Notes: generated from the sequence alone by a model not told the origin. A stretch of DNA of 64,000 nucleotides from an uncultured delta proteobacterium (GCA_963841435.1 CAWJCS010000006.1:1184001-1248000); one strand, 5' to 3'. Counted from the first letter of the stretch, positions 6,493-60,968 are shown. Numbers and translations: made by a program.

Positions 6493-7955
6493 TGGTCGCG
6501 GCGCGGCTGTTCGAGCCCGGCACCGGTCGGCAGCGCGTCGATCGCTACGATCTCGTCGGCGAGATCGCCTCGGGCGGCATGGCCACCGTCTTCCTCGCGC
6601 GGCTCACGGGCGTGGGAGGGTTCCAGCGCTTCGTGGCGATCAAGCGGCTGCATCCGCACCTGGCCGGCGAGCAGGAGTTCGTGGAGATGTTCCTCGACGA
6701 GGCGCGCCTCGCCGCGGGTATCCACCACCCGAACGTCGTTTCCATCGTCGAGGTGGGGGCGAGCCCGCTCGGCTACTACCTCGTGATGGAGTACATCGAG
6801 GGGGATACGCTCGCGAGGCTCCTCGCGCGGGCCGCAGGCAAGGGTCAGCGGCTGCCCACGCCCATTGCGTTGCGCATCGTGCTCGACACGCTGTTCGGCC
6901 TGCACGGCGCTCACGAGCTCAAGGACGACAAGGGCAAGATCCTCGAGCTCGTCCACCGCGACGTTTCCCCGCAAAATGTGCTGGTCGGTATCGACGGCGC
7001 GGCACGCATCACCGACTTCGGCGTAGCGCGATCGATGAGCCGACTCACGTCGACGCGCGTCGGCCAGCTCAAGGGCAAGCTCGCTTACATGGCGCCGGAG
7101 CAGGCCCAGGGGGAAGGACTCGACCGCCGCGCCGACGTGTTCTCGGCGGGCATTCTCATCTGGGAGACGCTCGCGGCGAAGCGCCTGTTCAAGGCAGAGA
7201 ACGAGGCCGCCACGCTCTCGCGCGTGATGAACGAGCCCATTCCGGACCTTTTCCGCGTCGCGCCGCACCTGAGCCGTGAGCTCTCCGCCGTGGTCAAGCG
7301 CGCGCTCGACCGCGATCGGAACCGGCGTTTCTCGACCACACAGCAGTTCGCGGAGGCGATCGAGATCGCGGCAAAGGATCGCGACGGCATCGCTTCGGCG
7401 CGGGACGTGGCGGCCTTCGTCAAGGAGATGATCGGCCAGGAGATCGAGCAGCAGCGCGAGGCCGTGCGCGCCTGGCTCGCTCGCAGCGAGCCGAGCGAGG
7501 TGGGTGCGCTCGCCCAGCCCCAGGCGCCGTCGAGCGTTTCCGTGGCGGCGATGTCGTTGCCTGGCGAGGGCTCGCGCAGCGTCACGCACGAGGCGCTGTC
7601 GGGCGTGATGGCGCCGCGGCGCTCGAAGGCGCCGCTCGTCGCGCTCGTCATCCTGCTCTTCGGAGCAGCGGGGGCCGGGGGCTTCTTGGCGCTCGCGCAG
7701 TCAGCGCCGCCCGCCCCGACGGCCATCGTCGTGCCCGTTCCGGTCCCGCCGCCGGAGGCCCCCAAGCCGGCGGGGAGGTCGGAGCCCACTGCCGCGCCGG
7801 GCGAGACGGCGACCGTCGCCCCGGTGTCCCCGTCAGCGCTCCCGACGGCGACGGCGGAGCCCTCGACCCTCTCGCCCAAGCCCGCCCCACGGGCCCCGGT
7901 GCGCCCGCGGAAGAAGAAAGACGACGCGCTGGACGTGAGAAACCCGTACCGTTAG
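6492..7955 (+). CDS. Eukaryote-like Ser/Thr protein kinase with TM segment and Pro-rich tail
   Basis: GGMATV, VAIK, HRDVSPQN, DFG and YMAPEQ motifs. Confidence 0.95.
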   Translation: MVAARLFEPGTGRQRVDRYDLVGEIASGGMATVFLARLTGVGGFQRFVAIKRLHPHLAGEQEFVEMFLDEARLAAGIHHPNVVSIVEVGASPLGYYLVMEYIEGDTLARLLARAAGKGQRLPTPIALRIVLDTLFGLHGAHELKDDKGKILELVHRDVSPQNVLVGIDGAARITDFGVARSMSRLTSTRVGQLKGKLAYMAPEQAQGEGLDRRADVFSAGILIWETLAAKRLFKAENEAATLSRVMNEPIPDLFRVAPHLSRELSAVVKRALDRDRNRRFSTTQQFAEAIEIAAKDRDGIASARDVAAFVKEMIGQEIEQQREAVRAWLARSEPSEVGALAQPQAPSSVSVAAMSLPGEGSRSVTHEALSGVMAPRRSKAPLVALVILLFGAAGAGGFLALAQSAPPAPTAIVVPVPVPPPEAPKPAGRSEPTAAPGETATVAPVSPSALPTATAEPSTLSPKPAPRAPVRPRKKKDDALDVRNPYR

Positions 7956-7979
7956 ACGTGACGCCGCTCGATGGCCCGG

Positions 7980-8008
7980 TTGACAGGCCTCGGGGCGACT
8001 GCTAGTTG
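7980..8008 (+). promoter_or_regulatory. Putative sigma70 promoter for the prs-rplY-pth operon
   Basis: Perfect TTGACA, a 17-nt spacer, then TAGTTG with TG two bases upstream (extended -10 position); ~60 nt before prs. Confidence 0.5.
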
Positions 8009-8070
8009 TCCGCTCCCCGCCGGGCGGCCGCTCGGAAGAGTGCCGTAATTTCGCGGGTTTATGGTTAGCC

Positions 8071-9018
8071 GTGGCCCTCAAGCGAGTCTGTCTCTTCAGC
8101 GGCAACGCAAATCTCGAGCTCGCGGCCGAGATCGCGCGTGTGCTCGATACGCCACTCGGCGAGGCGCGCGTCACGCGTTTCAGTGACGCCGAGACGTTCT
8201 GCGAGATCCGCGAGAACGTGCGCGGGCTCGACACGTACATCGTGCAGCCGACCTCGTCCCCCGTGAACGACAACCTGATGGAGCTGCTCATCATGTGCGA
8301 CGCCCTGCGGCGTGCCTCGGCGGCGGCCATCACGGCGGTGATCCCCTACTACGGCTACGCACGCCAGGACCGCAAGGTCGCTCCCCGTACGCCGATCACG
8401 TCCAAGCTCGTCGCGGATCTGCTGGTTGCCGCCGGCATCTCGCGCGTGGTGTGCGTGGACCTGCACGCGGGGCAAATCCAGGGATTTTTCAACATCCCCT
8501 TCGACCACCTCTACGCGCTACCCGTCTTCCTCGACGACTACTTGAAGGTGAAGTTCGACAGGGAAGCGGTGTTCATCTCGCCCGACGCCGGCGGCGTGGA
8601 ACGGACGCGCGCGTACTCCAAGCGGCTCGACGCCTCACTCGCGATCGTCGACAAGCGTCGCGAGCGCGCGAACGTGAGCGAGGTGATGCATCTCATCGGC
8701 GACGTCAAGGGTCGCGACTGCATCATCGTCGACGACATCATCGACACGGCCGGCACGCTCTGCAACGCGGCGCGCGCCGTCATGAACAACGGCGCTCGTA
8801 GCGTCGTGGCTTGCGCCACGCACGGCGTCCTCAGCGGTCCCGCCGTACAGCGCATCGAGGACTCGCCGCTCTCCGAGGTCGTGGTGTCGAATTCGGTTCC
8901 GCTCTCGGAGCGCGCCAAGGCCTGCAAGAAGATCCGTACCATTTCGATCGCACGCCTCCTTGGCGAAGCGATTCGACGCATTCACAACAGCGACTCGGTC
9001 TCGTCGCTGTTCGTCTAG
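8071..9018 (+). CDS. prs: Ribose-phosphate pyrophosphokinase
   Basis: [22 protein letters not shown] and DDIIDTAGT motifs. Confidence 0.97.
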
Positions 9019-9030
9019 AGGAAGAACACG

Positions 9031-9720
9031 ATGGAACTCAGAAAAGTCAGCGCGACGCCTCGGGTGGGCATGGGTAAGAGCGAAAGCGGGCGTTTGCGGC
9101 GCACGGGGCAGATCCCGGCGGTGGCCTATGGTCGCGGGCAAGCCGCGCGTTCGCTCAGCGTCTCGCCGGCGGATCTCGCGGGCGTGCTCGGGAGCGCTCA
9201 CGGCAAGAACACGGTCATCGAGCTCAGCGTGGGCCAGAGCGAGAAGCTCACGGTGCTGCTGCGCGAGTATCAGCACCACCCGGTTTCGCGCGCCTTCCTG
9301 CACGCCGATTTCGTCCAGATCGCCCTCGACCAGCCCGTCGACGTCGAGGTGCCGCTCGAGACGACCGGCAAGCCGGTCGGCGTCGTGAAGGGTGGCGTCC
9401 TGCGCCAGGTGTTTCGCAAGATCCCGGTGCGCTGCCTGCCGAGCCTGATTCCCGTCAACGTCGTTCACGACGTGACGGCGCTCGACCTCGATGGACACGT
9501 CGCTGCCAAGGATCTCGGGCTCCCCGAGGGCGTGAGCGTGCGTCTGCCCCCCGCGCAGACCGTGATCGCCGTCGTCACCGAGAAGCAGGCTCCGGACGAG
9601 GCCGAGGAAGAGGCCAAGGCTGCCGCGGCGGGCGCGGCGACTGCGGCGGCGGCGGCTGCTGCCGCTCCGGCCGATAAGGCCGCCGAGAAGGCCCCGGAGA
9701 AGAAGTCCGAGAAGAAGTAG
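9031..9720 (+). CDS. rplY: 50S ribosomal protein L25/Ctc (long form)
   Basis: GQIPAVAYG, QHHPV...HADF and GVVKGG motifs; conserved prs-rplY-pth order. Confidence 0.95.
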   Translation: MELRKVSATPRVGMGKSESGRLRRTGQIPAVAYGRGQAARSLSVSPADLAGVLGSAHGKNTVIELSVGQSEKLTVLLREYQHHPVSRAFLHADFVQIALDQPVDVEVPLETTGKPVGVVKGGVLRQVFRKIPVRCLPSLIPVNVVHDVTALDLDGHVAAKDLGLPEGVSVRLPPAQTVIAVVTEKQAPDEAEEEAKAAAAGAATAAAAAAAAPADKAAEKAPEKKSEKK

Positions 9721-49670: not shown

Positions 49671-50474
49671 TCAAGGTGGGGGCAGCCCCTCGCAGCGGCC
49701 CGTGTTGAGGTCGCAGTAGCGGTAAGGTCCGCACTGGAACATGCCGGTGCAGGCTCGGCACTCGTACTGGGCGCAGATCGGCTTGTCGAGCGGGCAATCG
49801 AACGAATCGCGACAGTCCACGCACGTTCCACCCGGCTGCAGGCACCGATCCGGCGCACAGTGGAGGTCCACCGTGCACTCGACGCAGAAAAAGAAGAACT
49901 GGTCGCAGAAGGGTCGATCGAATGGACACTGGTCCGAGGTGCGGCAGCTCGGCGTGCATTCGTAGAGCCCCTGGTAGGTGTTGCAGGCCTTGCCCGGGCT
50001 GCAGTCGAAGTCGCTCAGGCAGGCGATGCAGCGACTCAAATTCGTAGTTCGATCACGGAAACAGATGGGGGTCCCCATCGGGCAGTCGGCGCTCGCGACG
50101 CACGCGATGGGTCCGGCGCCTCCTTGGTCGTCACCACCTTCCCCGGTGAGCGCACCGACGTTGCCAGTTCCACCTGCGGCCACGGCGCCCCCACGACCCG
50201 CGGCACCCCCGGCCGCTGCGGGCGGGTGGCCCCCGGAGCTCGTCCCCGAAGTTTGCGTTCCGGCCGCCGCGCCCGACCCACCGGCCGCACTCGAGCCACC
50301 CGCGCCGCCGGATCCCTTGCTCGCGCCGCTCGAGAGAAGATCGAAGTTTTCGCTCGCGCAGCCCCACGCCATGGCAAGCGCTACGGCGAGGATTCGGCTC
50401 GGGCGACTCATCCGGAGCGCCATTCTAGCCTCGCCACCGGGCAGGCGCCGCGCGTTGTGCGCTTCCGTGGCCAC
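49671..50474 (-). CDS. Cys-rich repeat lipoprotein
   Basis: Lipobox AWGC, Gly-rich linker and about six C...DC....P.C repeats. The start may be ~50423. Confidence 0.75.
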   Translation of the reverse strand: MATEAHNARRLPGGEARMALRMSRPSRILAVALAMAWGCASENFDLLSSGASKGSGGAGGSSAAGGSGAAAGTQTSGTSSGGHPPAAAGGAAGRGGAVAAGGTGNVGALTGEGGDDQGGAGPIACVASADCPMGTPICFRDRTTNLSRCIACLSDFDCSPGKACNTYQGLYECTPSCRTSDQCPFDRPFCDQFFFFCVECTVDLHCAPDRCLQPGGTCVDCRDSFDCPLDKPICAQYECRACTGMFQCGPYRYCDLNTGRCEGLPPP

Positions 50475-50620
50475 GGGAGATTTTCGGAGCAGGTGTCATC
50501 GGGCAGGCGAGCTTTGGGGACGTGCAGAAAGCGGCTGGCGAGAAAAAGGCTCGCAAAACCGGGAACAAGGCCGGCGTCGGGGTGCCTGCTCGCTGGGACA
50601 ATGAGGTACACTACTATCTA

Positions 50621-51259
50621 GTGACACAAGCGGTCAGAACCCTGGCGGCTCGCCTACGAGTCATCGACGGCGGCGCTGACCCCCGTGCCTCCGGGCCTAC
50701 CGACGAGGAGCTCGTCGAAGCCGTTCAAAAGGGCGATGCCGCCGTTGCGAGCCTGCTCTACGACCGCCTGCTGAGCGCCGTCGATCACGCGCTGTATCGG
50801 GTGTTCGGCCGGCGCGAGCACGACCACGACGACCTCGTTCAGGCCGCGTTCGAGCAGATCGTGCTGACGCTCTCACGTCGCTCCTACGCTCGCGCCTGCA
50901 GCCTGCAGACCTGGGCTTCGACCATTGCGACGCACGTTGCCTTCAATGCCCTTCGAGCCCGGCGCCGCGAACGGCGCGTGTTCGACCGAGATCCCTCGAG
51001 CACGGCGGACGCCGAGCCCGTGTCGAGCGCCAATCTCGAGCGCGCGGCTGGCGCGCGGGCTGACCTCGCGCGCGTGCGGTCGTCGCTGGTGCAGATGAAG
51101 CCCGAACGCGCCGAGACGGTGTTCTTGCACGACGTGCTCGGTCACGACCTTGCCGAGATCGCGCTGATGACGCGCGTCTCCGTTTCCGCTGCGCAGTCGC
51201 GGCTCGTGCGCGGCCGACGAGAGCTCAGGCATCGCTTGTCGAAGGAGGCGTCTCCGTGA
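50621..51259 (+). CDS. ECF RNA polymerase sigma factor
   Basis: Region 2 DDLVQAAF...LQTWASTIA; region 4 LAEIALMTRVSVSAAQSRLVRGR. Confidence 0.9.
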   Translation: MTQAVRTLAARLRVIDGGADPRASGPTDEELVEAVQKGDAAVASLLYDRLLSAVDHALYRVFGRREHDHDDLVQAAFEQIVLTLSRRSYARACSLQTWASTIATHVAFNALRARRRERRVFDRDPSSTADAEPVSSANLERAAGARADLARVRSSLVQMKPERAETVFLHDVLGHDLAEIALMTRVSVSAAQSRLVRGRRELRHRLSKEASP

Positions 51260-52359
51260 ACGTGCGCGACAGCGATCCGGATCTGGTGCGCACGTTGCGG
51301 GAGCTCGGCTCGGGTGGTGTCCCCGTCGCGGATGCCGGGCGCGCGGAATACCAGCGCGAGCGCGTCATCCGTGTGATCGGACGTGCGCTCCAAAGCGTGC
51401 GGAGCGCGCACCGCCGCGGCCGGCGCACTTTCGGGATCGTCGCCGCCGCGGCCCTGCTCGCGCTCGCGGTGGGCGGTGCTCGGCTGGCGCTCGGGAGCGG
51501 CACGGAAACCGCCACCGGCGACGTCGCGACGGGCGCCGTGGCGGCGCGCAGCGTCTTCGGCACCGTCACCGTCACGGGAGTCGGCGTGCCCCACGCGGCG
51601 GTGGTGGGTGATCTGTTCCGCGGCGGCGAGGCCGTCACGACGGCCCTCGATTCGAAGATCGATCTCTCGGTCGAGTCCGGCGTCGCCGCTCTCGGCGCGT
51701 CGAGCCATCTCGAGTTCATGACGCCCAATCAGAAGGAGCGGCGCGTGCGGCTCTCGGCCGGGCGCGTCAACGTGGACCTGCCCGTGAAGCTGCGCGGTGG
51801 GCGCCATCTGGTCGTCGAAACCCCGGATGTAGACGTGCTCGTGGTCGGTACCGCGTTCAGCGTGGGTGTGGACCGGCAGGGGACGGAAACGACGACGCGC
51901 GTCAACGTCCAGCGCGGGACGGTCTGGGTCGTGAAGGGTGGCCGGCAAGAAGCGGTGCTGGTTGCTGGTCAGTCGTGGCGTTCCGGGGCGCCCGTTGCCG
52001 CCACGACCACCGCTCCTGCGGAGTCTTCCGCGACGGCGCCGAAAGCCTCCGTTCGGGCGTCGCGGTCGGGCGATTCGGGAACCCTCGCCGACGAAAACCG
52101 AATGTTTCAAGCGGGTCTCTCGGCGCGCAACGCGGGCGACGCCCAGGCTGCCGCCGACGCGTTCGGTGCGTTGCTCGCTCGCTACCCCCGCTCCGTTCTG
52201 GCCGAGCAAGCCCTCGCCGAGCGCTTCCGCGCGCTCGGGCGTGCTGGCAATACTTCGTCGGCCGCGGCCGCGGCACGCCGCTATCTCGCGAGCTACCCCA
52301 GGGGTTTTGCGCGCGTTGAGGCGGAACGGGTCACACGGGGGTCTCTCGGCGCGCGTTGA
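51256..52359 (+). CDS. FecR-domain anti-sigma factor with C-terminal TPR
   Basis: One TM, VETPDVDVLVVGTAFSV FecR motif and YLASYPRG TPR end; overlaps the sigma stop (GTGA). Confidence 0.85.
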   Translation: MNVRDSDPDLVRTLRELGSGGVPVADAGRAEYQRERVIRVIGRALQSVRSAHRRGRRTFGIVAAAALLALAVGGARLALGSGTETATGDVATGAVAARSVFGTVTVTGVGVPHAAVVGDLFRGGEAVTTALDSKIDLSVESGVAALGASSHLEFMTPNQKERRVRLSAGRVNVDLPVKLRGGRHLVVETPDVDVLVVGTAFSVGVDRQGTETTTRVNVQRGTVWVVKGGRQEAVLVAGQSWRSGAPVAATTTAPAESSATAPKASVRASRSGDSGTLADENRMFQAGLSARNAGDAQAAADAFGALLARYPRSVLAEQALAERFRALGRAGNTSSAAAAARRYLASYPRGFARVEAERVTRGSLGAR

Positions 52360-52472
52360 TGAGCCGGGTGCGCGCGCATCGCACATCAGAGCCTGATTGC
52401 GAGAAGCCGAAGTTACTTAGGGGAGCGTGCGTCGGGTGATGACATCCACGTGCCGCCCTAGGAGGCTTCCCG

Positions 52473-53135
52473 ATGAGGTTTATCAACGTTGGTTTTGGTC
52501 TCGTGGTGTCCGGCGCCCTGGCTACGGCAGTCTCCGGATGCGGTGGTGGTGACGACGACGCGAACGCCCCAATCGTGCCGAGCACGGGCGGCAGCTCGGC
52601 CACGGGTGGCAGCTCCGGCACGGGCGGCACCTCCGGCACGAGCACGGGCGGCACGACGAGCACGGGCGGTACGGGTGGCACGCTGAGCACCGGCGGCACG
52701 AGCGGTACCGGTACTGGCGGTACGGGCGGCACATTGAGCACAGGCGGCACGAGCGGCACGGGCGGCACCGCTGGCATGGCGGGCGGCGGTGGTCGCTTCG
52801 GTGGCGACGCTGGCGGCGCCGGTATGGCGGGCGGCGGTGGTCGCTTCGGCGGCGACGCTGGCGGCGCCGGCATGGCTGGTGGCGGTGGTCGCTTCGGCGG
52901 CGACGCCGGTGGCGCCGGCATGGCTGGCGGCGGTGGCCGCATGGGTGGCAACGCTGGCGGCGGTGGCCGCATGGGTGGCAATGCCGGCAACGCTGGCGGC
53001 GGTGGCCGCATGGGTGGCAATGCCGGCAACGCTGGCGGCGGTGGCCGCATGGGTGGCAACGCTGGCGGCGGCGGCCGCATGGGCGGCAACGCTGGCGGCG
53101 CTGGCATGGCCGACGGCGGAACCGCCGGCGCCTGA
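52473..53135 (+). CDS. Gly-rich low-complexity lipoprotein with eight GGGGR[F/M]GG repeats
   Basis: AGGAGG RBS, lipobox VSGC, TGG repeats, then GGGGRFGGDA x3 and GGGGRMGGNA x5. Confidence 0.8.
   Translation: MRFINVGFGLVVSGALATAVSGCGGGDDDANAPIVPSTGGSSATGGSSGTGGTSGTSTGGTTSTGGTGGTLSTGGTSGTGTGGTGGTLSTGGTSGTGGTAGMAGGGGRFGGDAGGAGMAGGGGRFGGDAGGAGMAGGGGRFGGDAGGAGMAGGGGRMGGNAGGGGRMGGNAGNAGGGGRMGGNAGNAGGGGRMGGNAGGGGRMGGNAGGAGMADGGTAGA
52770..53110 (+). repeat. Coding tandem repeats (48-bp units followed by 30/39-bp units)
   Basis: GCTGGCATGGCGGGCGGCGGTGGTCGCTTCGGTGGCGACGCTGGCGGC-type unit x3, then GGCGGCGGTGGCCGCATGGGTGGCAA(C/T) x5. Confidence 0.9.
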
Positions 53136-53234
53136 GCGGTTCAGAGCTCGCGGCGAGCGCGGCGCCGGGGCGGCCCACGCCCCGGCGACGCGTGACGCGG
53201 CTCGAGCCCCCCGAGGGCGACTAAGCTCTTCCCG

Positions 53235-54752
53235 ATGCGGCTCCTGGGTCGCCTGAAGAGCGTTTATCTCGGCGCCGACGAGCGCAGTCTCGCCGCGGGG
53301 CGCATCGCGCTCGCGGTCGTTCTGCTGCTCGATCTCGCGCGCCGCGCGCGCGAGATCGACACCCTCTACTCCAACGATGGGCTCTTGCCGAACCACACGG
53401 TGCTGTGGCGGCCGTCGTCGAGCCACGTCTTCTCTTTCTTCTTCATGGCGTCGCACGGCTACGAGGCGGCGCTCGGCTTCGCGCTCTGTGCGCTCGTCTA
53501 CGCGGGCCTCCTCTTCGGCCATAAAACCCAGTTCTGCCAAGTCGCGAGCCTTCTGTGCGTGCTCAGCCTGCACGGCCGCACGCAATTCGCGCAGAACGGC
53601 GGCGACAACGTGCTCGGCGAGCTCTGCCTGTTCGCGGCGTTCTTGCCGCTGGGGCGTCGCTACGCGCTCGATGCCCGCGAACAGGCCGCCGGGCAGCGCG
53701 ATGTCCGGTCGCTCGCCATGCTCGCGCTACGTCTCCAGATTGCCACGATCTACGCGTTCAACGCGCTGCAGAAGACGGGACCGACCTGGCGCGACGGGAG
53801 CGTCGTCCACTACATGCTGCACCAGGACGGCATCGTCACGATGCTCGGGGCCTGGCTGCGCGACCGGCTCACGCTGGGCGAATCGGCCGTCATGACGCAT
53901 GCGGCGCACGCGATCGAGGCGGCGTTGCCGTTGTTGATCCTGTCTCCGGTCGCCGTGCCCCACGCGCGGCGCCTCGCAGCAGCGCTCATGCTCGCCTTGC
54001 ACGGTGGCTTTGCGCTGGCTCTGAACCTCGGGATCTTCTCCTTCGCGATGCTCGCGTTCGCCCCATTTTTACTGCCGGGGGAGGACATCGAGCGTTTCGT
54101 CGGCTGGCTCGATAGAACTTCGAAGCGCCACCTCGGCGACACGCGACGACGACTCGTCGCATGGCGCGATCGCTTGCCCCAGGTGACTTCGCGAGGGCGT
54201 CCGGCCCGAACGGAGCCGCACCGGCGCCGTGCGCTCGTGCGACTCGGCGAGGTGACGATCGTCGTCATCATGGGCGTGGCCGGTTGCCAGGAGCTGGTCG
54301 ACAACCCCGTCACGGGGGTCGACCTCTCGTGGCGTCCGCGCGCCGTGGGCGTCGCCGTCGATTACCTGCAGATGCTCGAGGCCTGGGCGATGTACGCGCC
54401 CGACGCGCCCACCACCGACACGAACCTCTGGGTCAACGCCGTGACGCGCGACGGCCGCCACGTCGATCCGTTCAACGAGCGGGCGAGCCCCGGCGCACCC
54501 CGCCCGGGCGGCGCGATTCCCGCGCATCTCGGCCAGAGCTGCCTGCTCTACGCCTACGCGCTCCGCATCCCCTACCAGCCGGCGTACCACCGAGCGCTCG
54601 GCGAATGGATCCTGCGTTACCCGGAGCGCACGGGGCACGCCGGGGACGAGATCCGCTCGTTTTCCGTCTACGCCGTCGAGGACGAGAGTCCCCCGCCGGG
54701 AGAGCGCGAGCCACGACGGGCGAAAGCGCGGTTCTTATTCGGCTATCCGTGA
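53235..54752 (+). CDS. HTTM-domain (SdpB/vitamin-K carboxylase-like) membrane protein
   Basis: D.RSLA..RI, YSNDGLLP, NGGD, K.GPTWRDG and C-terminal WAMYAP motifs. Confidence 0.82.
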   Translation: MRLLGRLKSVYLGADERSLAAGRIALAVVLLLDLARRAREIDTLYSNDGLLPNHTVLWRPSSSHVFSFFFMASHGYEAALGFALCALVYAGLLFGHKTQFCQVASLLCVLSLHGRTQFAQNGGDNVLGELCLFAAFLPLGRRYALDAREQAAGQRDVRSLAMLALRLQIATIYAFNALQKTGPTWRDGSVVHYMLHQDGIVTMLGAWLRDRLTLGESAVMTHAAHAIEAALPLLILSPVAVPHARRLAAALMLALHGGFALALNLGIFSFAMLAFAPFLLPGEDIERFVGWLDRTSKRHLGDTRRRLVAWRDRLPQVTSRGRPARTEPHRRRALVRLGEVTIVVIMGVAGCQELVDNPVTGVDLSWRPRAVGVAVDYLQMLEAWAMYAPDAPTTDTNLWVNAVTRDGRHVDPFNERASPGAPRPGGAIPAHLGQSCLLYAYALRIPYQPAYHRALGEWILRYPERTGHAGDEIRSFSVYAVEDESPPPGEREPRRAKARFLFGYP

Positions 54753-54762
54753 CGAGGCGACG

Positions 54763-55827
54763 CTAGTCGGTGTCCCACCAGAAGTAGCTGTGGATGCGAA
54801 ACTCCTGCTCGGGGAGCTTCTTTCCCTCGAGCTCGCCCGCGAAGTGAGCGTCGTAGCTCGACATGGGATTCGCGCGCATCACGAGGCGGCCGCGCAAGGT
54901 GTCCCCGATGTGAACCTCGAGGGGCTTCGCGAAAACGAAGCGCAGCTGCGCCCAGTGCGTGCGTGGCGCGTCGGGCGCCGTGCTCAAAACGACGCGCTCG
55001 GTCGTGCCCTCGAAGGTGACGTCGAACCAGCCGGCGAGCCCGTGAATCGTGCCGGGGTGTGTCGCGACGAACTCGAACGGAAGCACGATCTCGGCGAGGT
55101 CGTCGAGCGGTACCGTGCGAAAGTCGAAGCCGTGCACCACGGGGCTTGCCATGAGCAGGCGGGGAGGGACGAAGCCGAGCGCCGGCATCGCGGAGAGTTC
55201 CTCCGCCGCCACCGACCCGAGGCCCGACAGGTCAACGCCGAAGAAATCGGTCTGCTCCCAGAACTTCTTACGGGAGACGCGGCCCTCGAAAAGCTTCTGA
55301 TCGACGAAGGGGGCGAGCCAGAGCCGACCGGTCGTTGGAAAGAGCGTGCCGCCAGGGCGGAGGAAGCGATCACGCGCGATCAGGAACGCCTCGACCATCC
55401 GCTCGTGGAACAGGAAAAATCCCCACGGCTCCGAGATGATCACGTCGATCGGCTCGGGCATGGAGAGCTCGGCGAGCTGGCCCTTGACGATGACGACCCG
55501 GTCGCTCATGCCATTGTGCTCGAACAGGCGGCGCGCATGCTCGGCCGTTGCCGTTCCCTCGACGGCGTACACCTTGCGAGCGCCGGCGAGCGCCGCGAAC
55601 GCCGACAGGATCCCCGTGCCCGCGCCCACGTCGAGCACGACCTTACCCGCGAAGTCGGCGCGATTGCCGACGATGCCCTGCCGGTAGGCGCCGGTGCGCT
55701 CGCGATCCTCGAGCATCGCCTGTTGGTTCGCGAGGAAGTGGTAGTGGGCCGAATGGACGGCACCCCACTCCGGGAGCACGGGAACGAGCTTGCTCCCGGC
55801 GTCCGGTTTCGGGCTCGAAGACGCCAT
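54763..55827 (-). CDS. Protein arginine N-methyltransferase, CARM1/PRMT4-like
   Basis: QQAMLED..RT..Y, VLDVGAGTG, VYAVE, DVIISEPWGFFLFHERM (double-E loop), FLRPGG, HGLAGWFD and LSTAP..P.THW motifs. Confidence 0.9.
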   Translation of the reverse strand: MASSSPKPDAGSKLVPVLPEWGAVHSAHYHFLANQQAMLEDRERTGAYRQGIVGNRADFAGKVVLDVGAGTGILSAFAALAGARKVYAVEGTATAEHARRLFEHNGMSDRVVIVKGQLAELSMPEPIDVIISEPWGFFLFHERMVEAFLIARDRFLRPGGTLFPTTGRLWLAPFVDQKLFEGRVSRKKFWEQTDFFGVDLSGLGSVAAEELSAMPALGFVPPRLLMASPVVHGFDFRTVPLDDLAEIVLPFEFVATHPGTIHGLAGWFDVTFEGTTERVVLSTAPDAPRTHWAQLRFVFAKPLEVHIGDTLRGRLVMRANPMSSYDAHFAGELEGKKLPEQEFRIHSYFWWDTD

Positions 55828-55850: not shown

Positions 55851-57170
55851 TCAGCCGCCCTTTGCCGCACAGCGCATGGCGCACTGCAGGTCGCCGGAGG
55901 AACAGCCGCACTTGCTGCGCGGCTTGGCTGGCGCGGCCGCAGGCTCGCTGCCGCCGCTCGTGCTCGAACCCGAGCTCGACGACGACTTCTTCGTGGAGGT
56001 CACGCGGCGAGTCGTGGTCGTCCTCTTTTTCTCGGGCTTGTCGGGTCCCTCGTCGTCCGCCGACCCCGTGGGTGGTGGGGCCGCCGTGAGGGTCGGGGTG
56101 GGGGTCGGCGTTGGTGCTGCTGCCGGGGGAGGAGGCGGCAGTGGCGCCTCGACGACGGGCGGCGGCGGAGCCGGACGCAGGATGACGGCGAGCGCCACGA
56201 TCACGGCGGCGGCGACGATGGCGATGGCGATGAAGAGGCCCGTCTTGCTCTTCTGTGGCGACGCGAGATCCGCCGCCGTGAGCCCGCCGCCGAGCGGTGA
56301 GCCCAGGCCGAGCGGGGCCGAGACGCCGAGCGGCGCCGTGCCGAGCGGTGACATCGCCGGGGCCGCAGTGAGTGGCTGGGCCGCGGCGGCGCCCTCGGAC
56401 TTCACGGCGGCGGCCGTGAGTGCCTTCAGATCGATGAGACCCGAGTCGTCACGGCTCGCGGTCGTGGAGGAGCCGCGTGGAGCCGGCGCCGACCGCGACG
56501 GCGACGACGCCGACGCCAACGTCAGCGCGCTCAGCGAGAACAGCACCGACGACTCATTGCGCGCGCCGGTTGCTCCAGCCAACCCGCCGCCTCCCAATCC
56601 CCCGGGTTCGGGAGCGCTGGTCGCGACGTCCTCCTCGCTGCCGGCGCGGTCGATGCGTCCGAAGAGGTCGCTGCCCGCTGCCCGCGCGGGCCGAGCGGCC
56701 GCTCTCACGGGGCTTGGTTGGGGCGGCGGCGCTTCGGACTTGGCTTCCCAGGGCGATGCCGCGGGGGCCGGCGCCGCTTGCGCGTGGCCTGCCGCCGCGT
56801 GCAGCGCTTCCACGATCTCGTCAACCTCGGACAGCGCCTTCCAATCCTCGAAGCCGTCTGCCCAAACGTACGTTTCGCCCGTGATCTGGCCTGCATTGTA
56901 GGCTGCAACGATCTCGGCGACCGGCATCGTGCGCTGATCGCCGTCACCGAGGTCCACCGAATACTCAGGGCCTGTTTCCGCCTGTTCGCTCATGGGATGC
57001 TCTTCTGCCGGTTCCCCGCCCGTTGAAGCCGTGACGGACGGAGGGTTCACCTTACCGTCGATGACGATGGTCGCGCCGCACTTGCGGCAGCGGATCTTCG
57101 CCAGCCGAGACACCACCTTCTCGTCGGAGATGGAGTACTTCGCGGAGCAGGAGGGACAACTTATCTTCAC
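55851..57170 (-). CDS. Zinc-ribbon + GYF_2 domain membrane protein (AgmX/GltJ-like)
   Basis: CPSC...CRKC, TYVWADGFEDW, RNESSVLFSL, TM helix, Pro-rich stalk and 4-Cys C-terminus. Confidence 0.8.
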   Translation of the reverse strand: MKISCPSCSAKYSISDEKVVSRLAKIRCRKCGATIVIDGKVNPPSVTASTGGEPAEEHPMSEQAETGPEYSVDLGDGDQRTMPVAEIVAAYNAGQITGETYVWADGFEDWKALSEVDEIVEALHAAAGHAQAAPAPAASPWEAKSEAPPPQPSPVRAAARPARAAGSDLFGRIDRAGSEEDVATSAPEPGGLGGGGLAGATGARNESSVLFSLSALTLASASSPSRSAPAPRGSSTTASRDDSGLIDLKALTAAAVKSEGAAAAQPLTAAPAMSPLGTAPLGVSAPLGLGSPLGGGLTAADLASPQKSKTGLFIAIAIVAAAVIVALAVILRPAPPPPVVEAPLPPPPPAAAPTPTPTPTLTAAPPPTGSADDEGPDKPEKKRTTTTRRVTSTKKSSSSSGSSTSGGSEPAAAPAKPRSKCGCSSGDLQCAMRCAAKGG

Positions 57171-57482
57171 GCTTGGCCTCGTGAGGGACCCGGGCTGGGG
57201 TACAGGGATACTATCATCGGAAAGAGACCGCTCCGGTCCAGCGGTCGCATCATTAACCAAGCAATACGGAGCGCTCTGCGATTCGGTCTGGCCTGCCTAG
57301 CAGACGGTGAAACGGGCGCCGGAGCGCACCCTTTTAGCTAGATTCGCCCGTGAGCGCCAGCTTCAAGGGCGAGAGCCTGCCCGACCGAGTTCGACACCCC
57401 CTTCTTCCAAAGGCTTTGCTAGTTTTTGGGGGCTCGGGGCCGGGAGGGTCGGAAAACGCTGGGATTTGGAGGCCTTCCCGGG

Positions 57483-58146
57483 TCAAGGCTCGCCCTCCGG
57501 CCCCCGGCCCAGCCGGGAAAGGGCGGTCAGCGCGGCGATTCGCTCGGCGAGCTCCGGATTTTCGCCGTCCTCGGCACGCAATGCACGAAACAACTCGTGC
57601 GTCGCGGCCGCGAGATCGCCTTCGGTGATTCGCGCTTCCGCGCGCTTGGCGTAGAGCTTCGCCGCCTTCGAACGGCAGAGCTCGTCGAGTGAACGAGCTC
57701 CCGTGTCGGCCCGATCGGCCGTCGTGCCGTCGGAGTCAACATCGAGCCGGAGCTCGCCCTTCGCGAGGGCGAGATCGTAGGCCGCGCGACGCTCCGGCAC
57801 GATGAGCGCCTGGTACGCCTCGACGCCCCGCCGGAAGACTCGCAGGGCAATCCGACGCGCAGCGTCATCGCCGCGCGACTGGGCGTCGGGGTGGAACGCC
57901 AGGGAAAATTCGTGGAACGCGCTTCGGATCGCGTCGGCGTCCGCAATCTCGAGGACGCCGAGGATCTCGTAGTAGCTCGCGTCGTCGAGCACGCCGTCCC
58001 ACGCCATCAGGTGCGCGAGATTCGAGCGACGCCGCGTCCTCGGCGGGCTCGAGAGGATCGAAGCCGGCGTCGGGTGACGGCTCGATGGGCGGCCGGCTCG
58101 AGCCCGGACCAGCGCCGTCGTCGCCCGCATCGTTTGCTTCGCTCAT
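57483..58146 (-). CDS. J-domain protein (probable frameshift ~58020 in the N-terminal part)
   Basis: YYEILGV...FHPD...EAY..L....RRAAYD; adjacent to the Hsp70 gene. Confidence 0.8.
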
Positions 58147-58163: not shown

Positions 58164-60420
58164 TCAACCGGTGCGCTGGGCGGCGTGACGCGCTGCGAGG
58201 CCGGCGACGTGTTCGGGCTCGGGAATGGCGACCATGTGGACCTTCGCCAACGTCTCTCGCCCGGTCTGCACGTCGCGTGCGCTCACCTCGAGCAGACCGT
58301 CCGTGTCGAGCGCGAAAGTCACCGCGACCTCCACCGTGCCGCGCGAGCCTGCGCGCAGACCCGTGAGCTCGAGCTCTCCGAGCAACGTGTTTTCAGCGAA
58401 CCGACTCGACTCGCCCTGACCGATGCGCACTCGTACAATCGTCTGGTTGTCGGATGCCGTGACGAAGTTTCGTCGCTTGCTGCAGGGCACGGGCGTGTTG
58501 CGAGCGATCAACGAGTCGGAGTAACCGCCGATGGTCTCGACGGAGAGCGTGAGCGGCGTCACGTCGATGAGCACGGGAGGTGGAGCCGCGAGCGGCATGG
58601 GGGCGGGCGCTGGGAGCGGAGCGGTGAGCGCTGCGGCCGCCGCCGCGGGAGCGGGCACCGAGGGCAGCGGGGGACCGGCGTCCGCGGGCGGCGGCATGGG
58701 CGGTGCGGGGCCGACCCGCGTGGGAGCGTCGTCGGGCACCTCGGGAAGCGGCAAGGACGCTTCGTCGAGATCCTCGAGCTCGGCGGGCTCGAGTAGCTCG
58801 ATGTCGTGGACGCTCGTCGAGGCCGGCGGAGGGGGTGGGGGCGGCGGAGGGGGCGGAGGTAGAGGTAGGGGCGGTAGCCGTGGCGCTGCGCGCCCAGGGG
58901 TGTCCGGTGGAGACAGCGGTGGCGCGAGCGCTGCCGTGCGGGCCGCGTCGCCGAGGCCGCTGCCGGTCTTCGTCCGCGCGCGGGCGCCGAGGCCGAGCAG
59001 CGTCGACCCTTCACGGTGCGTCGGGGTCTCGGGCGTGAGCGCCGCGGGCGGCTGCGCAACGCCCGGTCGCGTCACCATGCCGCGGCGTGGCTCGAACGGC
59101 TTGGTCTCGGGTGCGACCTCGCCCTCGGCCACCATGCTGCTCAGCCTGACGCGCCCGGGTTCGGCGGGGCCGCCGCTCGCGTCGCCGCTCGGTCGCGTCG
59201 TGCGCGCGACGCCGCGCTGCGTGTTCGCAAGGCGTGCAGGCACCGGCGGCGCGGGCACCGGGGCGCGTCGCCGCTCCGTTCCCGAAAGCGCGCTCGCCTG
59301 AATCGCGGCGCCCACCGCGACGACCTCGTCGGGGCTGACGTGGTGGTTTCCTTCGCGGCGGAAGAATTCCTCCACGCGCCGGCGAACGAGGGGAATTCGT
59401 GTCGACCCGCCGACCAGCAGCACCTGATCGAGGTCGGTCACGGAGAGCCGCGCCACGCCGAGCGCCTCGCGGCAAACGTCGAACGTCTGATCGACGATCG
59501 GCGCGATCGTGATCTCGAGCTCGCCCCGCGTCATCTCGAAGTTGAAATCGATCGAGCGCCCGTCGGGACCGTGCACGACGTCCTCCATCGAGACGCTCGC
59601 GGAGTCGTCCGTCGAACAGGCGCTGCTTCAGATCCTCGGCGGCAATCCGGAAGCGGTCGAACAGCACCGGGTCGGTGCGCACGTCGTAGCGGTGCTTGCG
59701 GAGGAAGAGCTCCGCCATGCGCTCGGCGATCGCGACGTCGATGTCGTCGCCGCCGAGGAACGTGTTGCCGGCCGTCGCGAGCACCTCGAAAACGTTGTTC
59801 GACAGATCGAGCAAGGTCACGTCGAACGTGCCGCCGCCGAAATCGTAGACGGCGATGCGCTCGGCGCTGTCCTTGCCGTAGCCGTACGCAAGCGCGGCGG
59901 CCGTGGGCTCGTTGAGGATGCGCAGCACCTCGAGTCCCGCGACGCGTCCGGCCACCTTCGTGGCGGCACGTTGCAGGTCGTTGAAATTTGCCGGCACGGT
60001 GATGACGGCCTGCTCGACGGGCACTCCGAGCGCGGCCTCGGCCACGGTCTTCGCCTTACGCAGCACGAACGCGCTGATCTCGGGCAGCGTGTAGGTTTCG
60101 CCGCGCGCGAACACGAGCGTGGACTGGCCGGGGCCCTCGCGCATCTCGAAGGGCAAGCGCGAACGCGCGCGCCGGACCTCCTCGGTGTCCCAGCTGCGTC
60201 CGATGAGCCGCTTGACCGAGTAGATCGTGCTCCCGGGGTCGATGATGCGGCGATCCTTGGCCGTGCGTCCGACGAGCACGCTGCCGTTCGGGTGGAAGGA
60301 CACCACCGAGGGAATCAGCGTGTTTTCCCGCTCGTCCGGCAGTGGCTGAGCTTCGCCGTCCCGAACGGCCGCGACGACGGTGTTGGTCGTCCCGAGGTCG
60401 ATGCCGACGACCTCGCTCAC
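58164..60420 (-). CDS. Hsp70/DnaK-family paralogue with Pro-rich insertion (frameshift ~59615)
   Basis: GIDLGTTN, TVPANF, NEPTAAA, DFGGGTFD, VGGSTRIP and DVTPLTL motifs across ORFs 59011..60870 and 58164..59588. Confidence 0.92.
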
Positions 60421-60968
60421 GACCGTACCCCCGCTTCGATCTCGATCTCGCGAAGCACGGCGTCGTACCAACGCGCGATCGTCCCTTCGAACGGCCACAT
60501 CCAGCCGTAGGCGCCGCCCGTGAAGCGTTCGACGATGGTCTTGCGAAGCGACGGCGAGCGCGCGCTCTCGAGCCCGCGCAGGTGTGCCGTCGCGCGCAGC
60601 GTCTCGCGATAGGCTTCCCACTCGAGCCGCGCGCGACCGTACGCGAGCCCGATGGGGAAGAACGGGACGAGGTAGACGAATGCCATCAAGGCAAGGCCGT
60701 AGCGTCGGCGCTGGCGGAGGTGGACGCGCTCGTGGTGGAGCACGATCGCGCGGTCGATGTCGGGTGTGTCGTCCCAGGCGAACGGCGTGTAGAGCGTGTA
60801 GCCGAGCACGGTGTGGTAGCGGGTGAGGTACTCGCGCTGTGCCCCGAGCGTGAGGACGCGCAACAACCAATCGATGGCGACCGAGAGTGGGTCGCCACGC
60901 TTGGGCACGAGTCGGAATGCGGGGAATTCCTCCGTGATTTCAGCGATCAAGCCCTCGGCGAGCGCCAC
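60417..60968 (-). CDS. Hypothetical protein with HExxH (zincin-like) motif
   Basis: VLHHERVHLRQ followed by a hydrophobic segment and EWEAY. Confidence 0.6.
   Translation of the reverse strand: MALAEGLIAEITEEFPAFRLVPKRGDPLSVAIDWLLRVLTLGAQREYLTRYHTVLGYTLYTPFAWDDTPDIDRAIVLHHERVHLRQRRRYGLALMAFVYLVPFFPIGLAYGRARLEWEAYRETLRATAHLRGLESARSPSLRKTIVERFTGGAYGWMWPFEGTIARWYDAVLREIEIEAGVRS

Follow-up and report, generated by a model that had tools for sequence, protein, structure and literature searches.

A Gly/Arg-repeat lipoprotein, an HTTM-family membrane protein and a CARM1-type arginine methyltransferase beside an ECF sigma/FecR pair in a Polyangiaceae clade

Overview of the locus

The DNA considered here is a stretch of 64,000 nucleotides (G000:C6:1184001-1248000, 70% GC; hereafter the window) from the 7.78-Mb genome, assembled in 6 contigs, of an uncultured delta proteobacterium. 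Within it, three genes are found between an extracytoplasmic function (ECF) sigma factor/FecR pair and a gene for a protein with a Zn-ribbon and a GYF domain (ZnGYF). They encode a Gly/Arg-repeat lipoprotein, an integral membrane protein of the HTTM family and a protein arginine methyltransferase (PRMT) of the CARM1 type (Table 1). In the initial annotation of this DNA, the three were proposed to form a modification system or a locus resembling those for ribosomally synthesized and post-translationally modified peptides (RiPPs). A comparison with related genomes leads to another reading, which is favored with some reserve: a conserved envelope-signaling pair, followed by a trio that was gained once in a single Polyangiaceae clade and that does not constitute an obligate system.

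The Gly/Arg-repeat lipoprotein

Gly accounts for 100 of the 220 residues of the lipoprotein (45%), next to 9 Arg and 11 Met. While R2 belongs to the signal peptide, the remaining eight Arg are all located in GGGGRFGG (three times) or GGGGRMGG (five times), exactly as the initial annotation had described. The chain starts with the lipoprotein signal MRFINVGFGLVVSGALATAVSG, directly followed by Cys23, and displays the features of a signal peptidase II (SPase II) substrate: a positive n-region (MRF), a hydrophobic h-region (INVGFGLVVSGALATA) and a lipobox (VSG, then C23) with the invariant Cys. The same build of the signal is seen in orthologues and paralogues. The mature chain runs from a Thr/Ser/Gly linker into the GGGGR[F/M]GG repeats and is devoid of a globular domain.

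At the DNA level, Tandem Repeats Finder (TRF) detected repeats with a period of 48 (4.0 copies, 89% matches, 52769-52962), 30 (5.5 copies, 52923-53105) and 69 (2.8 copies) in this gene. The uniform surroundings of the Arg residues are therefore ascribed to the expansion of tandem DNA repeats rather than to eight independent selections. The plus frame is regarded as coding because it combines the lipoprotein signal with an AGGAGG sequence 7 nt before the ATG. An open reading frame (ORF) on the opposite strand (52331-53107, minus), with PPMRPPPP repeats resembling a CARM1-type Pro/Met/Arg motif, was judged to be non-coding, since all frames are open in the GGN-rich tract and since the plus frame has the Shine-Dalgarno sequence and the lipoprotein signal, the latter being kept in orthologues with diverged repeats. 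The PPMRPPPP repeat itself arises because CGCATG stands for Arg-Met on one strand but for Met-Arg when the opposite one is read.

The N-terminus is thus a lipoprotein signal rather than a RiPP leader. No leader, dedicated protease, ABC exporter or recognition element was detected among the nine neighboring proteins scanned with Pfam and NCBIfam, and nothing supports the suggestion of a RiPP-like locus.

Gly/Arg tracts are substrates of PRMTs, and CARM1 favors contexts rich in Pro, Gly and Met. The lipoprotein resembles such eukaryotic substrates, both the glycine- and arginine-rich (GAR/RGG) and the Pro/Gly/Met-rich ones, in its low complexity, its high Gly content, its regularly spaced Arg and its 11 Met. 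It differs in its motif, which is GGGGR[F/M]GG instead of RGG and contains no Pro in the repeats, and in being an exported lipoprotein instead of a nuclear or RNA-binding protein.

The CARM1-type methyltransferase

The PRMT lies two genes away from the lipoprotein, as had been annotated, and is clearly CARM1-like. When a profile of six PRMT orthologues was compared to the PDB, CARM1 was the best match (1.9e-104, 352.9 bits), ahead of plant PRMT4.2 (249.2 bits), PRMT6 (225.6 bits) and PRMT1 (214.2 bits), and positions 23-341 of the profile align to the CARM1 catalytic core. The key residues of motif I for binding of S-adenosylmethionine (VLDVGAGTGILS) and of the post-I motif (KVYAVE) are invariant in the six orthologues and align to CARM1. 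The same invariance is observed for E134 and E143 in the double-E loop (SEPWGFFLFHERM, aligning to SEPMGYMLFYERM of CARM1) and for T291, H292 and W293 in the THW loop. The C-terminal beta-barrel/oligomerization subdomain, PRMT_C (PF22528), is also present. Since all catalytic motifs are intact, arginine methyltransferase activity is probable.

Motif I (VLDVGAG.GILS), the double-E loop, the THW loop and the PRMT_C barrel are hence common to the window enzyme and CARM1/PRMT4. Eukaryotic CARM1 additionally has N- and C-terminal regions that flank the catalytic core. The bacterial protein, with its 354 residues, has no room for these accessory domains: the core alone aligns and no further Pfam domain is present. 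A signal peptide is missing as well.

About 80 metagenome protein clusters are at least 52% identical to the window PRMT; in the annotation of the Joint Genome Institute (JGI), such proteins are already called 'CARM1'. Outside the Polyangiaceae, the closest proteins come from eukaryotes, namely rotifers, Fonticula and a bicosoecid, with 44-48% identity. Arginine methylation by the PRMT family is regarded as a eukaryotic trait. Homologues from Polyangiales with 30-40% identity are PRMT6-like and represent a separate lineage (L155-L173) that is scattered in the order. CARM1-type and PRMT6-like enzymes together, 22 out of 401 genomes contain a match to the PRMT at 1e-30 or better. A literature search at the level of title listings found no published work on bacterial CARM1-type PRMTs or on a trio of PRMT, HTTM protein and lipoprotein.

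The HTTM protein

The gene between the lipoprotein and the PRMT had been described as HTTM/SdpB-like. The first half of this description stands, as the protein scores above the Pfam gathering cut-off for HTTM (Table 1); the second does not, as the SdpB model (NCBIfam TIGR04033) yielded 38.2 bits where 178.4 are required. A search of the PDB with the protein sequence gave no matches. The AlphaFold2 model (pLDDT 77, pTM 0.81) comprises a membrane domain and a C-terminal beta-rich domain. When this model was used as query in Foldseek, the top 16 matches were all human GGCX (best E-value 2.5e-8, TMq 0.50, 490-526 aligned columns). The predicted fold is that of full-length GGCX, including the extracytoplasmic C-terminal domain. 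The sequence identity to GGCX is 11-15% (13-15% for the 15 matches with an E-value below 0.001).

A lysine, K180, in a Y..N-A..K.G..W stretch is invariant across 14 homologues and may be the equivalent of the catalytic Lys of GGCX, K218. The window locus differs from the GGCX and SdpB systems in that a propeptide-type or SdpC-like substrate gene is absent. In a preprint (bioRxiv 10.64898/2026.08.19.745780), the bacterial HTTM enzyme MloH is presented as an aspartyl carboxylase and a pairing of bacterial HTTM proteins with DUF5819 is described.

The gene is one of five HTTM matches in the genome. The family is expanded in the genus, and in several genomes HTTM proteins of about 700 residues occur as tandem pairs (e.g. 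G000:C4:668391-671470). At 1e-20, no HTTM match was found in G016 and seven other genus genomes. (The genus tallies for HTTM, the J-domain protein and the Gly/Arg pattern take in an unpublished genome, G046, on which no specific claim is built.) At the 11 loci of other HTTM paralogues that were examined, a Gly-rich neighbor is absent.

Conservation and single origin of the trio

Matches to the PRMT with an E-value below 1e-100 occur in 6 of the 47 genus genomes only (G000, G005, G014, G043, G044 and G049). In the five genomes other than that of the window, the covered parts are colinear with it: HEAT, up310, CysRich, ECF and FecR genes are followed by the lipoprotein and HTTM genes on one strand and by PRMT on the other, and then by ZnGYF and DnaJ. 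The identity of the PRMT to that of the window is 57-67% across this clade. The same arrangement, further called context A, was recovered in 13 of the 18 metagenome loci. Of the context-A metagenome loci, 11 extend to the HTTM side, and 10 of these contain the HTTM gene; in the remaining one, L178, PRMT is followed by a different gene. The Gly/Arg lipoprotein is present in all eight that extend to its position.

The lipoprotein orthologues were located by position and by reading of ORFs; tblastn with the lipoprotein as query yielded no matches under default composition statistics. Positional homologues of the same build were obtained from five genomes and eight metagenome contigs. In this clade, the gene 5' of HTTM always encodes a lipoprotein signal, CGG(D)DD, a Thr/Ser/Gly linker and Gly-rich repeats that carry Arg at intervals. 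Their units vary from genome to genome (GGGGR[VT]GG, GFGQGGRTGGQGGS, GGGGRATMG, MGGRGGMGGR), and in some copies (G005, L181 and L182) part of the repeat Arg has been replaced by Lys.

For comparison, 16 genus loci without PRMT were fetched with the J-domain gene as anchor, of which 14 were informative as two contigs ended early. In all 14, the same flanks are present, FecR and ZnGYF adjoin convergently and neither HTTM nor PRMT lies between them. In a maximum-likelihood tree of 21 loci, based on ECF, FecR, DnaJ and the N-terminal part of ZnGYF, the seven trio-bearing loci form one clade (93/94 support), which is the sister of the trio-less G013. One gain of the trio, inserted between FecR and the ZnGYF gene, is enough to explain this distribution. 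The conservation of the trio is accordingly counted as one event, because the loci that bear it are monophyletic and their flanks are equally syntenic.

The methyltransferase in other neighborhoods

CARM1-type PRMTs are present in 11 out of 383 representative genomes of the family, at 12 loci. Beyond context A, three further neighborhoods can be distinguished. Context B (L129, L127, which equals L210, and L180) has three GGDEF regulators upstream and a pyrophosphate (PPi)-type phosphofructokinase downstream. Context C (L126, L176, L208 and L209) contains an EF-hand-like lipoprotein and a second methyltransferase, and context D is formed by L187 and L207.

In one of these loci, L129 from another genus, the PRMT gene (6962-8041, plus) is followed after 90 bp by a Gly/Arg lipoprotein gene on the same strand (8131-8784). 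It encodes 217 residues with GVGGRGQGG-type repeats, has its own ribosome-binding site (GGGAGG) and lies in a neighborhood unrelated to context A. The genome in question holds this lipoprotein and four weak further matches, and no HTTM gene is found within the 15-kb locus. The probability of such an adjacency arising by chance was estimated, roughly and post hoc, at about 1e-2 (assuming at most five such genes among about 9,000, and nine loci), which is suggestive.

At the other eight non-A loci (L126, L127, L176, L180, L187, L207, L208 and L209), no Gly/Arg lipoprotein lies beside the CARM1-type PRMT. A degraded lipoprotein gene 3' of PRMT was considered for L127, L180 and L187, and blastn and tblastn of the gap found nothing. 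No HTTM gene and no Gly-rich ORF was detected near the 20 PRMT6-like loci, over a distance of about 5 kb or as far as the shorter contigs extend. In the PRMT contexts examined, a linkage of PRMT and HTTM was not seen outside the trio clade. The neighborhood analysis of PRMT homologues that the initial annotation had suggested thus brought to light the PRMT-lipoprotein pair once more, in L129, and confined the linkage of the whole trio to one lineage.

A few other features of these loci can be mentioned. One genome (G463, which equals G434) has two CARM1-type PRMTs, in contexts B and D (C3:258443-259471 and C28:116270-117328), and a Gly/Arg lipoprotein adjoins only the context-B copy. The context-C PRMT of L126 is convergent with a second class I methyltransferase (8064-9143, minus), of 359 residues, that shows generic Methyltransf_25/PrmA-type matches and no PRMT_C. 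Just downstream of the PRMT in L180, reverse-transcriptase/maturase-like ORFs (1567-2753, minus), resembling a group II intron, have been inserted.

The lipoprotein family away from the trio

Of the 14 trio-less loci, five likewise have a Gly-rich lipoprotein after FecR. In G016 it is a pure Gly/Arg repeat lipoprotein (L119:3318-3995, with GGRFGG, GGRLGG and GGRMG), and that genome has no PRMT match and, as mentioned, no HTTM match at 1e-20. In G023 the lipoprotein combines GGRDG repeats with a Cys-rich domain, and again no PRMT match is found in the genome. The window genome itself contains a paralogue (C5:442081-442713) with GGGGR[FM]GGNAGTA repeats, the vicinity of which is free of PRMT, HTTM and ECF genes. 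Its neighbors include an ORF with a CxxxCxxC-type motif, read as radical-SAM-like, and large putative secreted or lipoprotein ORFs. In G049, three further Gly/Arg lipoprotein copies are likewise unlinked to PRMT, HTTM and ECF. The Gly/Arg lipoprotein family is independent of PRMT and HTTM. It is a small, fast-evolving and lineage-specific family, the repeats of which grow by DNA slippage.

A rule for Gly/Arg lipoproteins (a lipoprotein signal; at most 330 residues; a mature chain with at least 35% Gly; no Cys; at least five Arg, at least 80% of them in Gly context) finds exactly two ORFs in the 7.78 Mb of the window genome. RGG-type arrays are widespread, with a pattern match in 43 of the 47 genus genomes. 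The window genome has a 139-residue cytoplasmic ORF (G000:C3:522135-522554, minus) with a C-terminal RGG/GGR-rich tail and a domain that was read by eye as an RNA recognition motif (RRM). Proteins with an RRM and an RGG tail are a classical type of PRMT substrate.

Flanking genes

The genes on either side of the trio are listed in Table 1. An ECF sigma/FecR pair upstream had been noted in the initial annotation and was recovered with Pfam. The two genes overlap by 4 bp and the lipoprotein gene follows on the same strand, with a gap of 100 bp between it and the HTTM gene. As in known ECF/FecR modules, proteins with sigma-70 regions 2 and 4 and FecR are thus followed by an envelope lipoprotein; a TonB-dependent transducer, in contrast, is absent from the window genes scanned. 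The HTTM and PRMT genes are convergent with 10 bp between their stops, in line with a caveat raised at the outset, and PRMT starts 23 bp past the stop of ZnGYF on the same strand. An orthologue of the J-domain protein is present in 37 of the 47 genus genomes. A scan for promoters and terminators returned no sigma-70-like promoters and no excess of terminator-like sites over shuffled sequence. It is uninformative, and ECF-type promoters fall outside its models.

Table 1. Genes and other features around the trio, with window positions
Feature	Position	Strand	Evidence
ECF-type sigma-70 factor	50522..51259	+	Pfam Sigma70_r2 5.8e-10, Sigma70_r4_2 5.2e-9; NCBIfam sigma70-ECF 3.3e-15; true start maybe downstream of 50522
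FecR-type anti-sigma factor with C-terminal TPR/YfiO-like region	51256..52359	+	Pfam FecR 7.4e-7, YfiO 2.7e-7, TPR_6 1.6e-6
Shine-Dalgarno AGGAGG, 7 nt 5' of the lipoprotein ATG	52460..52465	+	Read from sequence
Gly/Arg-repeat lipoprotein, 220 aa	52473..53135	+	ORF reading; outside every Pfam/NCBIfam family
Tandem DNA repeats coding for the Arg-bearing units	52769..53119	+	TRF
HTTM-family integral membrane protein, 505 aa	53235..54752	+	Pfam HTTM PF05090 7.3e-10, 39.3 bits (cut-off 27.7)
CARM1-type type I PRMT, 354 aa	54763..55827	-	Pfam PRMT_C PF22528 9.8e-23, residues 196-351
Zn-ribbon and GYF_2 protein, GltJ-like N-terminus	55851..57260	-	Pfam Zn_ribbon_4 2.5e-10, GYF_2 6.2e-9; NCBIfam GltJ partial, far under cut-off
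J-domain protein, in conserved flank	57483..58130	-	Pfam DnaJ 1.4e-11
Hsp70	58164 onward	-	HSP70 profile

Downstream of the J-domain gene, Hsp70 is broken up into two ORFs that overlap each other (58164-60870, minus). One of these (59011-60870) covers positions 1-267 of the HSP70 profile and the other (58164-59588) positions 287-380 and beyond, while the orthologue in G014 is a single ORF of 838 residues. Either a frameshift or pseudogene, or else an indel of the assembly, would account for the split. On the other side, divergent from the ECF gene, a lipoprotein of 267 residues is encoded (49671-50474, minus) that contains a Gly-rich linker and has a C-terminal domain rich in Cys. Pfam and NCBIfam gave no matches to it, and its position is conserved in many genus loci.

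Functional interpretation

The somewhat favored reading can be worded as follows. A conserved ECF sigma/FecR pair for envelope signaling would be followed by a disordered Gly/Arg lipoprotein from a fast-evolving family. In one Polyangiaceae clade, the genes for a GGCX-fold HTTM protein and a CARM1-type PRMT would have arrived with or next to this lipoprotein in a single event. The lipoprotein would be exported by Sec and processed by SPase II, leaving a mature chain made up of an intrinsically disordered linker and Gly-Arg-(Met/Phe) repeats. The PRMT would be cytoplasmic and probably active, judging from its motifs, so that any methylation of the lipoprotein would occur before Sec export. This constraint of topology, a lipoprotein signal on the candidate substrate and no signal peptide on the enzyme, had been pointed out from the start and still stands. 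From the single origin of the trio and the independence of the lipoprotein family, we infer that the trio is not an obligate system. The lipoprotein family is nonetheless the leading, albeit tentative, candidate for a substrate of the PRMT, and a cytoplasmic RGG protein such as the RRM-RGG ORF is about as likely. As for the HTTM protein, adjacency in one lineage is all that speaks for its participation.

Several points weigh against this reading. Loci with at least three chained GGRxGG...GGRxGG matches in the DNA were counted by hand, with the focal loci left out. Among the matches listed (five are unlisted), four such loci are found in 2 of the 6 PRMT-positive genomes, compared to three in 3 of the 41 PRMT-negative ones, in a count limited by the many copies that the pattern misses and by the non-independence of related genomes. 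G000 and G049, which contain extra Gly/Arg-array loci, are both PRMT-positive. Taken with the trio, the adjacency in L129 might reflect a genuine pair of enzyme and substrate, in which case 'not obligate' may undersell the relationship. Selection on the unit would agree with the retention of the trio while the PRMT diverged to 57-67% identity, but the flanks are equally syntenic.

Among the alternatives, a role of the PRMT in the cytoplasm is perhaps the most tenable, although it too is considered rather unlikely. The enzyme would then act on cytoplasmic proteins (RRM-RGG, ribosomal or chaperone proteins, or the ZnGYF-DnaJ-Hsp70 unit) and its proximity to the lipoprotein would be incidental. 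The absence of a signal peptide fits, as do the RRM-RGG ORF in the window genome, the RGG-type arrays across the genus and the majority of CARM1-type PRMT loci without an adjacent Gly/Arg lipoprotein. With its start so close to the stop of ZnGYF on the same strand, PRMT is also probably co-transcribed with ZnGYF, DnaJ and Hsp70. Yet the latter unit is found in PRMT-less genus genomes and is missing from the PRMT contexts B, C and D. There is hence no conserved link between PRMT and ZnGYF-DnaJ-Hsp70, because the unit occurs without PRMT and PRMT without the unit. Moreover, nothing connects the RRM-RGG protein to the PRMT, and the adjacency in L129 would be left unexplained.

Slightly less credit is given to a pair of PRMT and lipoprotein, in which the repeat Arg are methylated in the cytoplasm prior to Sec export and the HTTM protein is a bystander. 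It is the occurrence of the two genes side by side in two unrelated neighborhoods, context A and L129 (same strand, 90 bp), that makes this pair attractive, all the more as Gly/Arg lipoproteins are rare (two ORFs in the window genome and four weak extra matches in that of L129). The catalytic motifs of the PRMT are intact, and several of the PRMT-linked lipoproteins have Met-rich repeats, reminiscent of the Pro/Gly/Met-rich contexts reported for CARM1. On the other hand, eight CARM1-type loci do without an adjacent Gly/Arg lipoprotein and the PRMT-less genomes G016 and G023 possess such lipoproteins. The replacement of part of the Arg by Lys in the copies of G005, L181 and L182 does not fit well either, nor does an exported substrate for an enzyme that lacks a signal peptide.

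The three-part system of the initial annotation, with methylation of the precursor by PRMT, maturation or modification at the membrane by the HTTM protein and control by ECF/FecR, is considered improbable. In its favor, the genes are contiguous and kept together in every clade contig that reaches far enough, except L178, and FecR and the lipoprotein gene are consecutive on one strand. The GGCX-like fold with its predicted extracytoplasmic domain and the invariance of K180 also count for it. These observations are set against the single evolutionary event behind the trio and the absence of HTTM from the L129 locus, from behind the PRMT of L178 and from the PRMT neighborhoods examined outside the clade. 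In addition, G016 has the lipoprotein and no HTTM match genome-wide, the 11 other HTTM paralogue loci have no Gly-rich neighbor, the SdpB cut-off was missed, and leader, protease and exporter are absent among the scanned neighbors.

Still more doubtful is a periplasmic modification of the lipoprotein by the HTTM protein, e.g. a quinol-dependent carboxylation of the Asp in RFGGDAGG, with an unrelated PRMT. The two genes are on the same strand and 100 bp apart, the predicted fold resembles full-length GGCX, and MloH, as described in that preprint, provides a precedent for aspartyl carboxylation; but the pairing is unrepeated, in that the lipoprotein paralogues and the G016 copy have no HTTM neighbor and the other HTTM paralogues no Gly-rich one, and the orthologues have not conserved the Asp in their repeats. 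Just as little weight is attached to a combination of both enzymes, where a horizontally shared CARM1-type PRMT would methylate the precursor and a GGCX-fold HTTM protein would then modify the exported lipoprotein in a quinol-dependent manner, all as output of ECF/FecR.

Significance

The clade that CARM1-type enzymes form in soil Polyangiaceae has received little study. If the combination of both enzymes were true after all, it would be the first described bacterial PRMT substrate system, as far as the searches show, and a bacterial GGCX homologue would gain a physiological substrate. If the PRMT does not act on the lipoprotein, three unrelated genes make up a lineage-specific insertion of an ordinary kind. 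The presence of a PRMT beside a Gly/Arg lipoprotein in two unrelated neighborhoods offers a concrete and cheap substrate hypothesis for mass spectrometry. Should the PRMT indeed act on the lipoprotein, arginine methylation of disordered envelope proteins in bacteria would become open to study, and the finding would be relevant to the exchange of genes between myxobacteria and eukaryotes.

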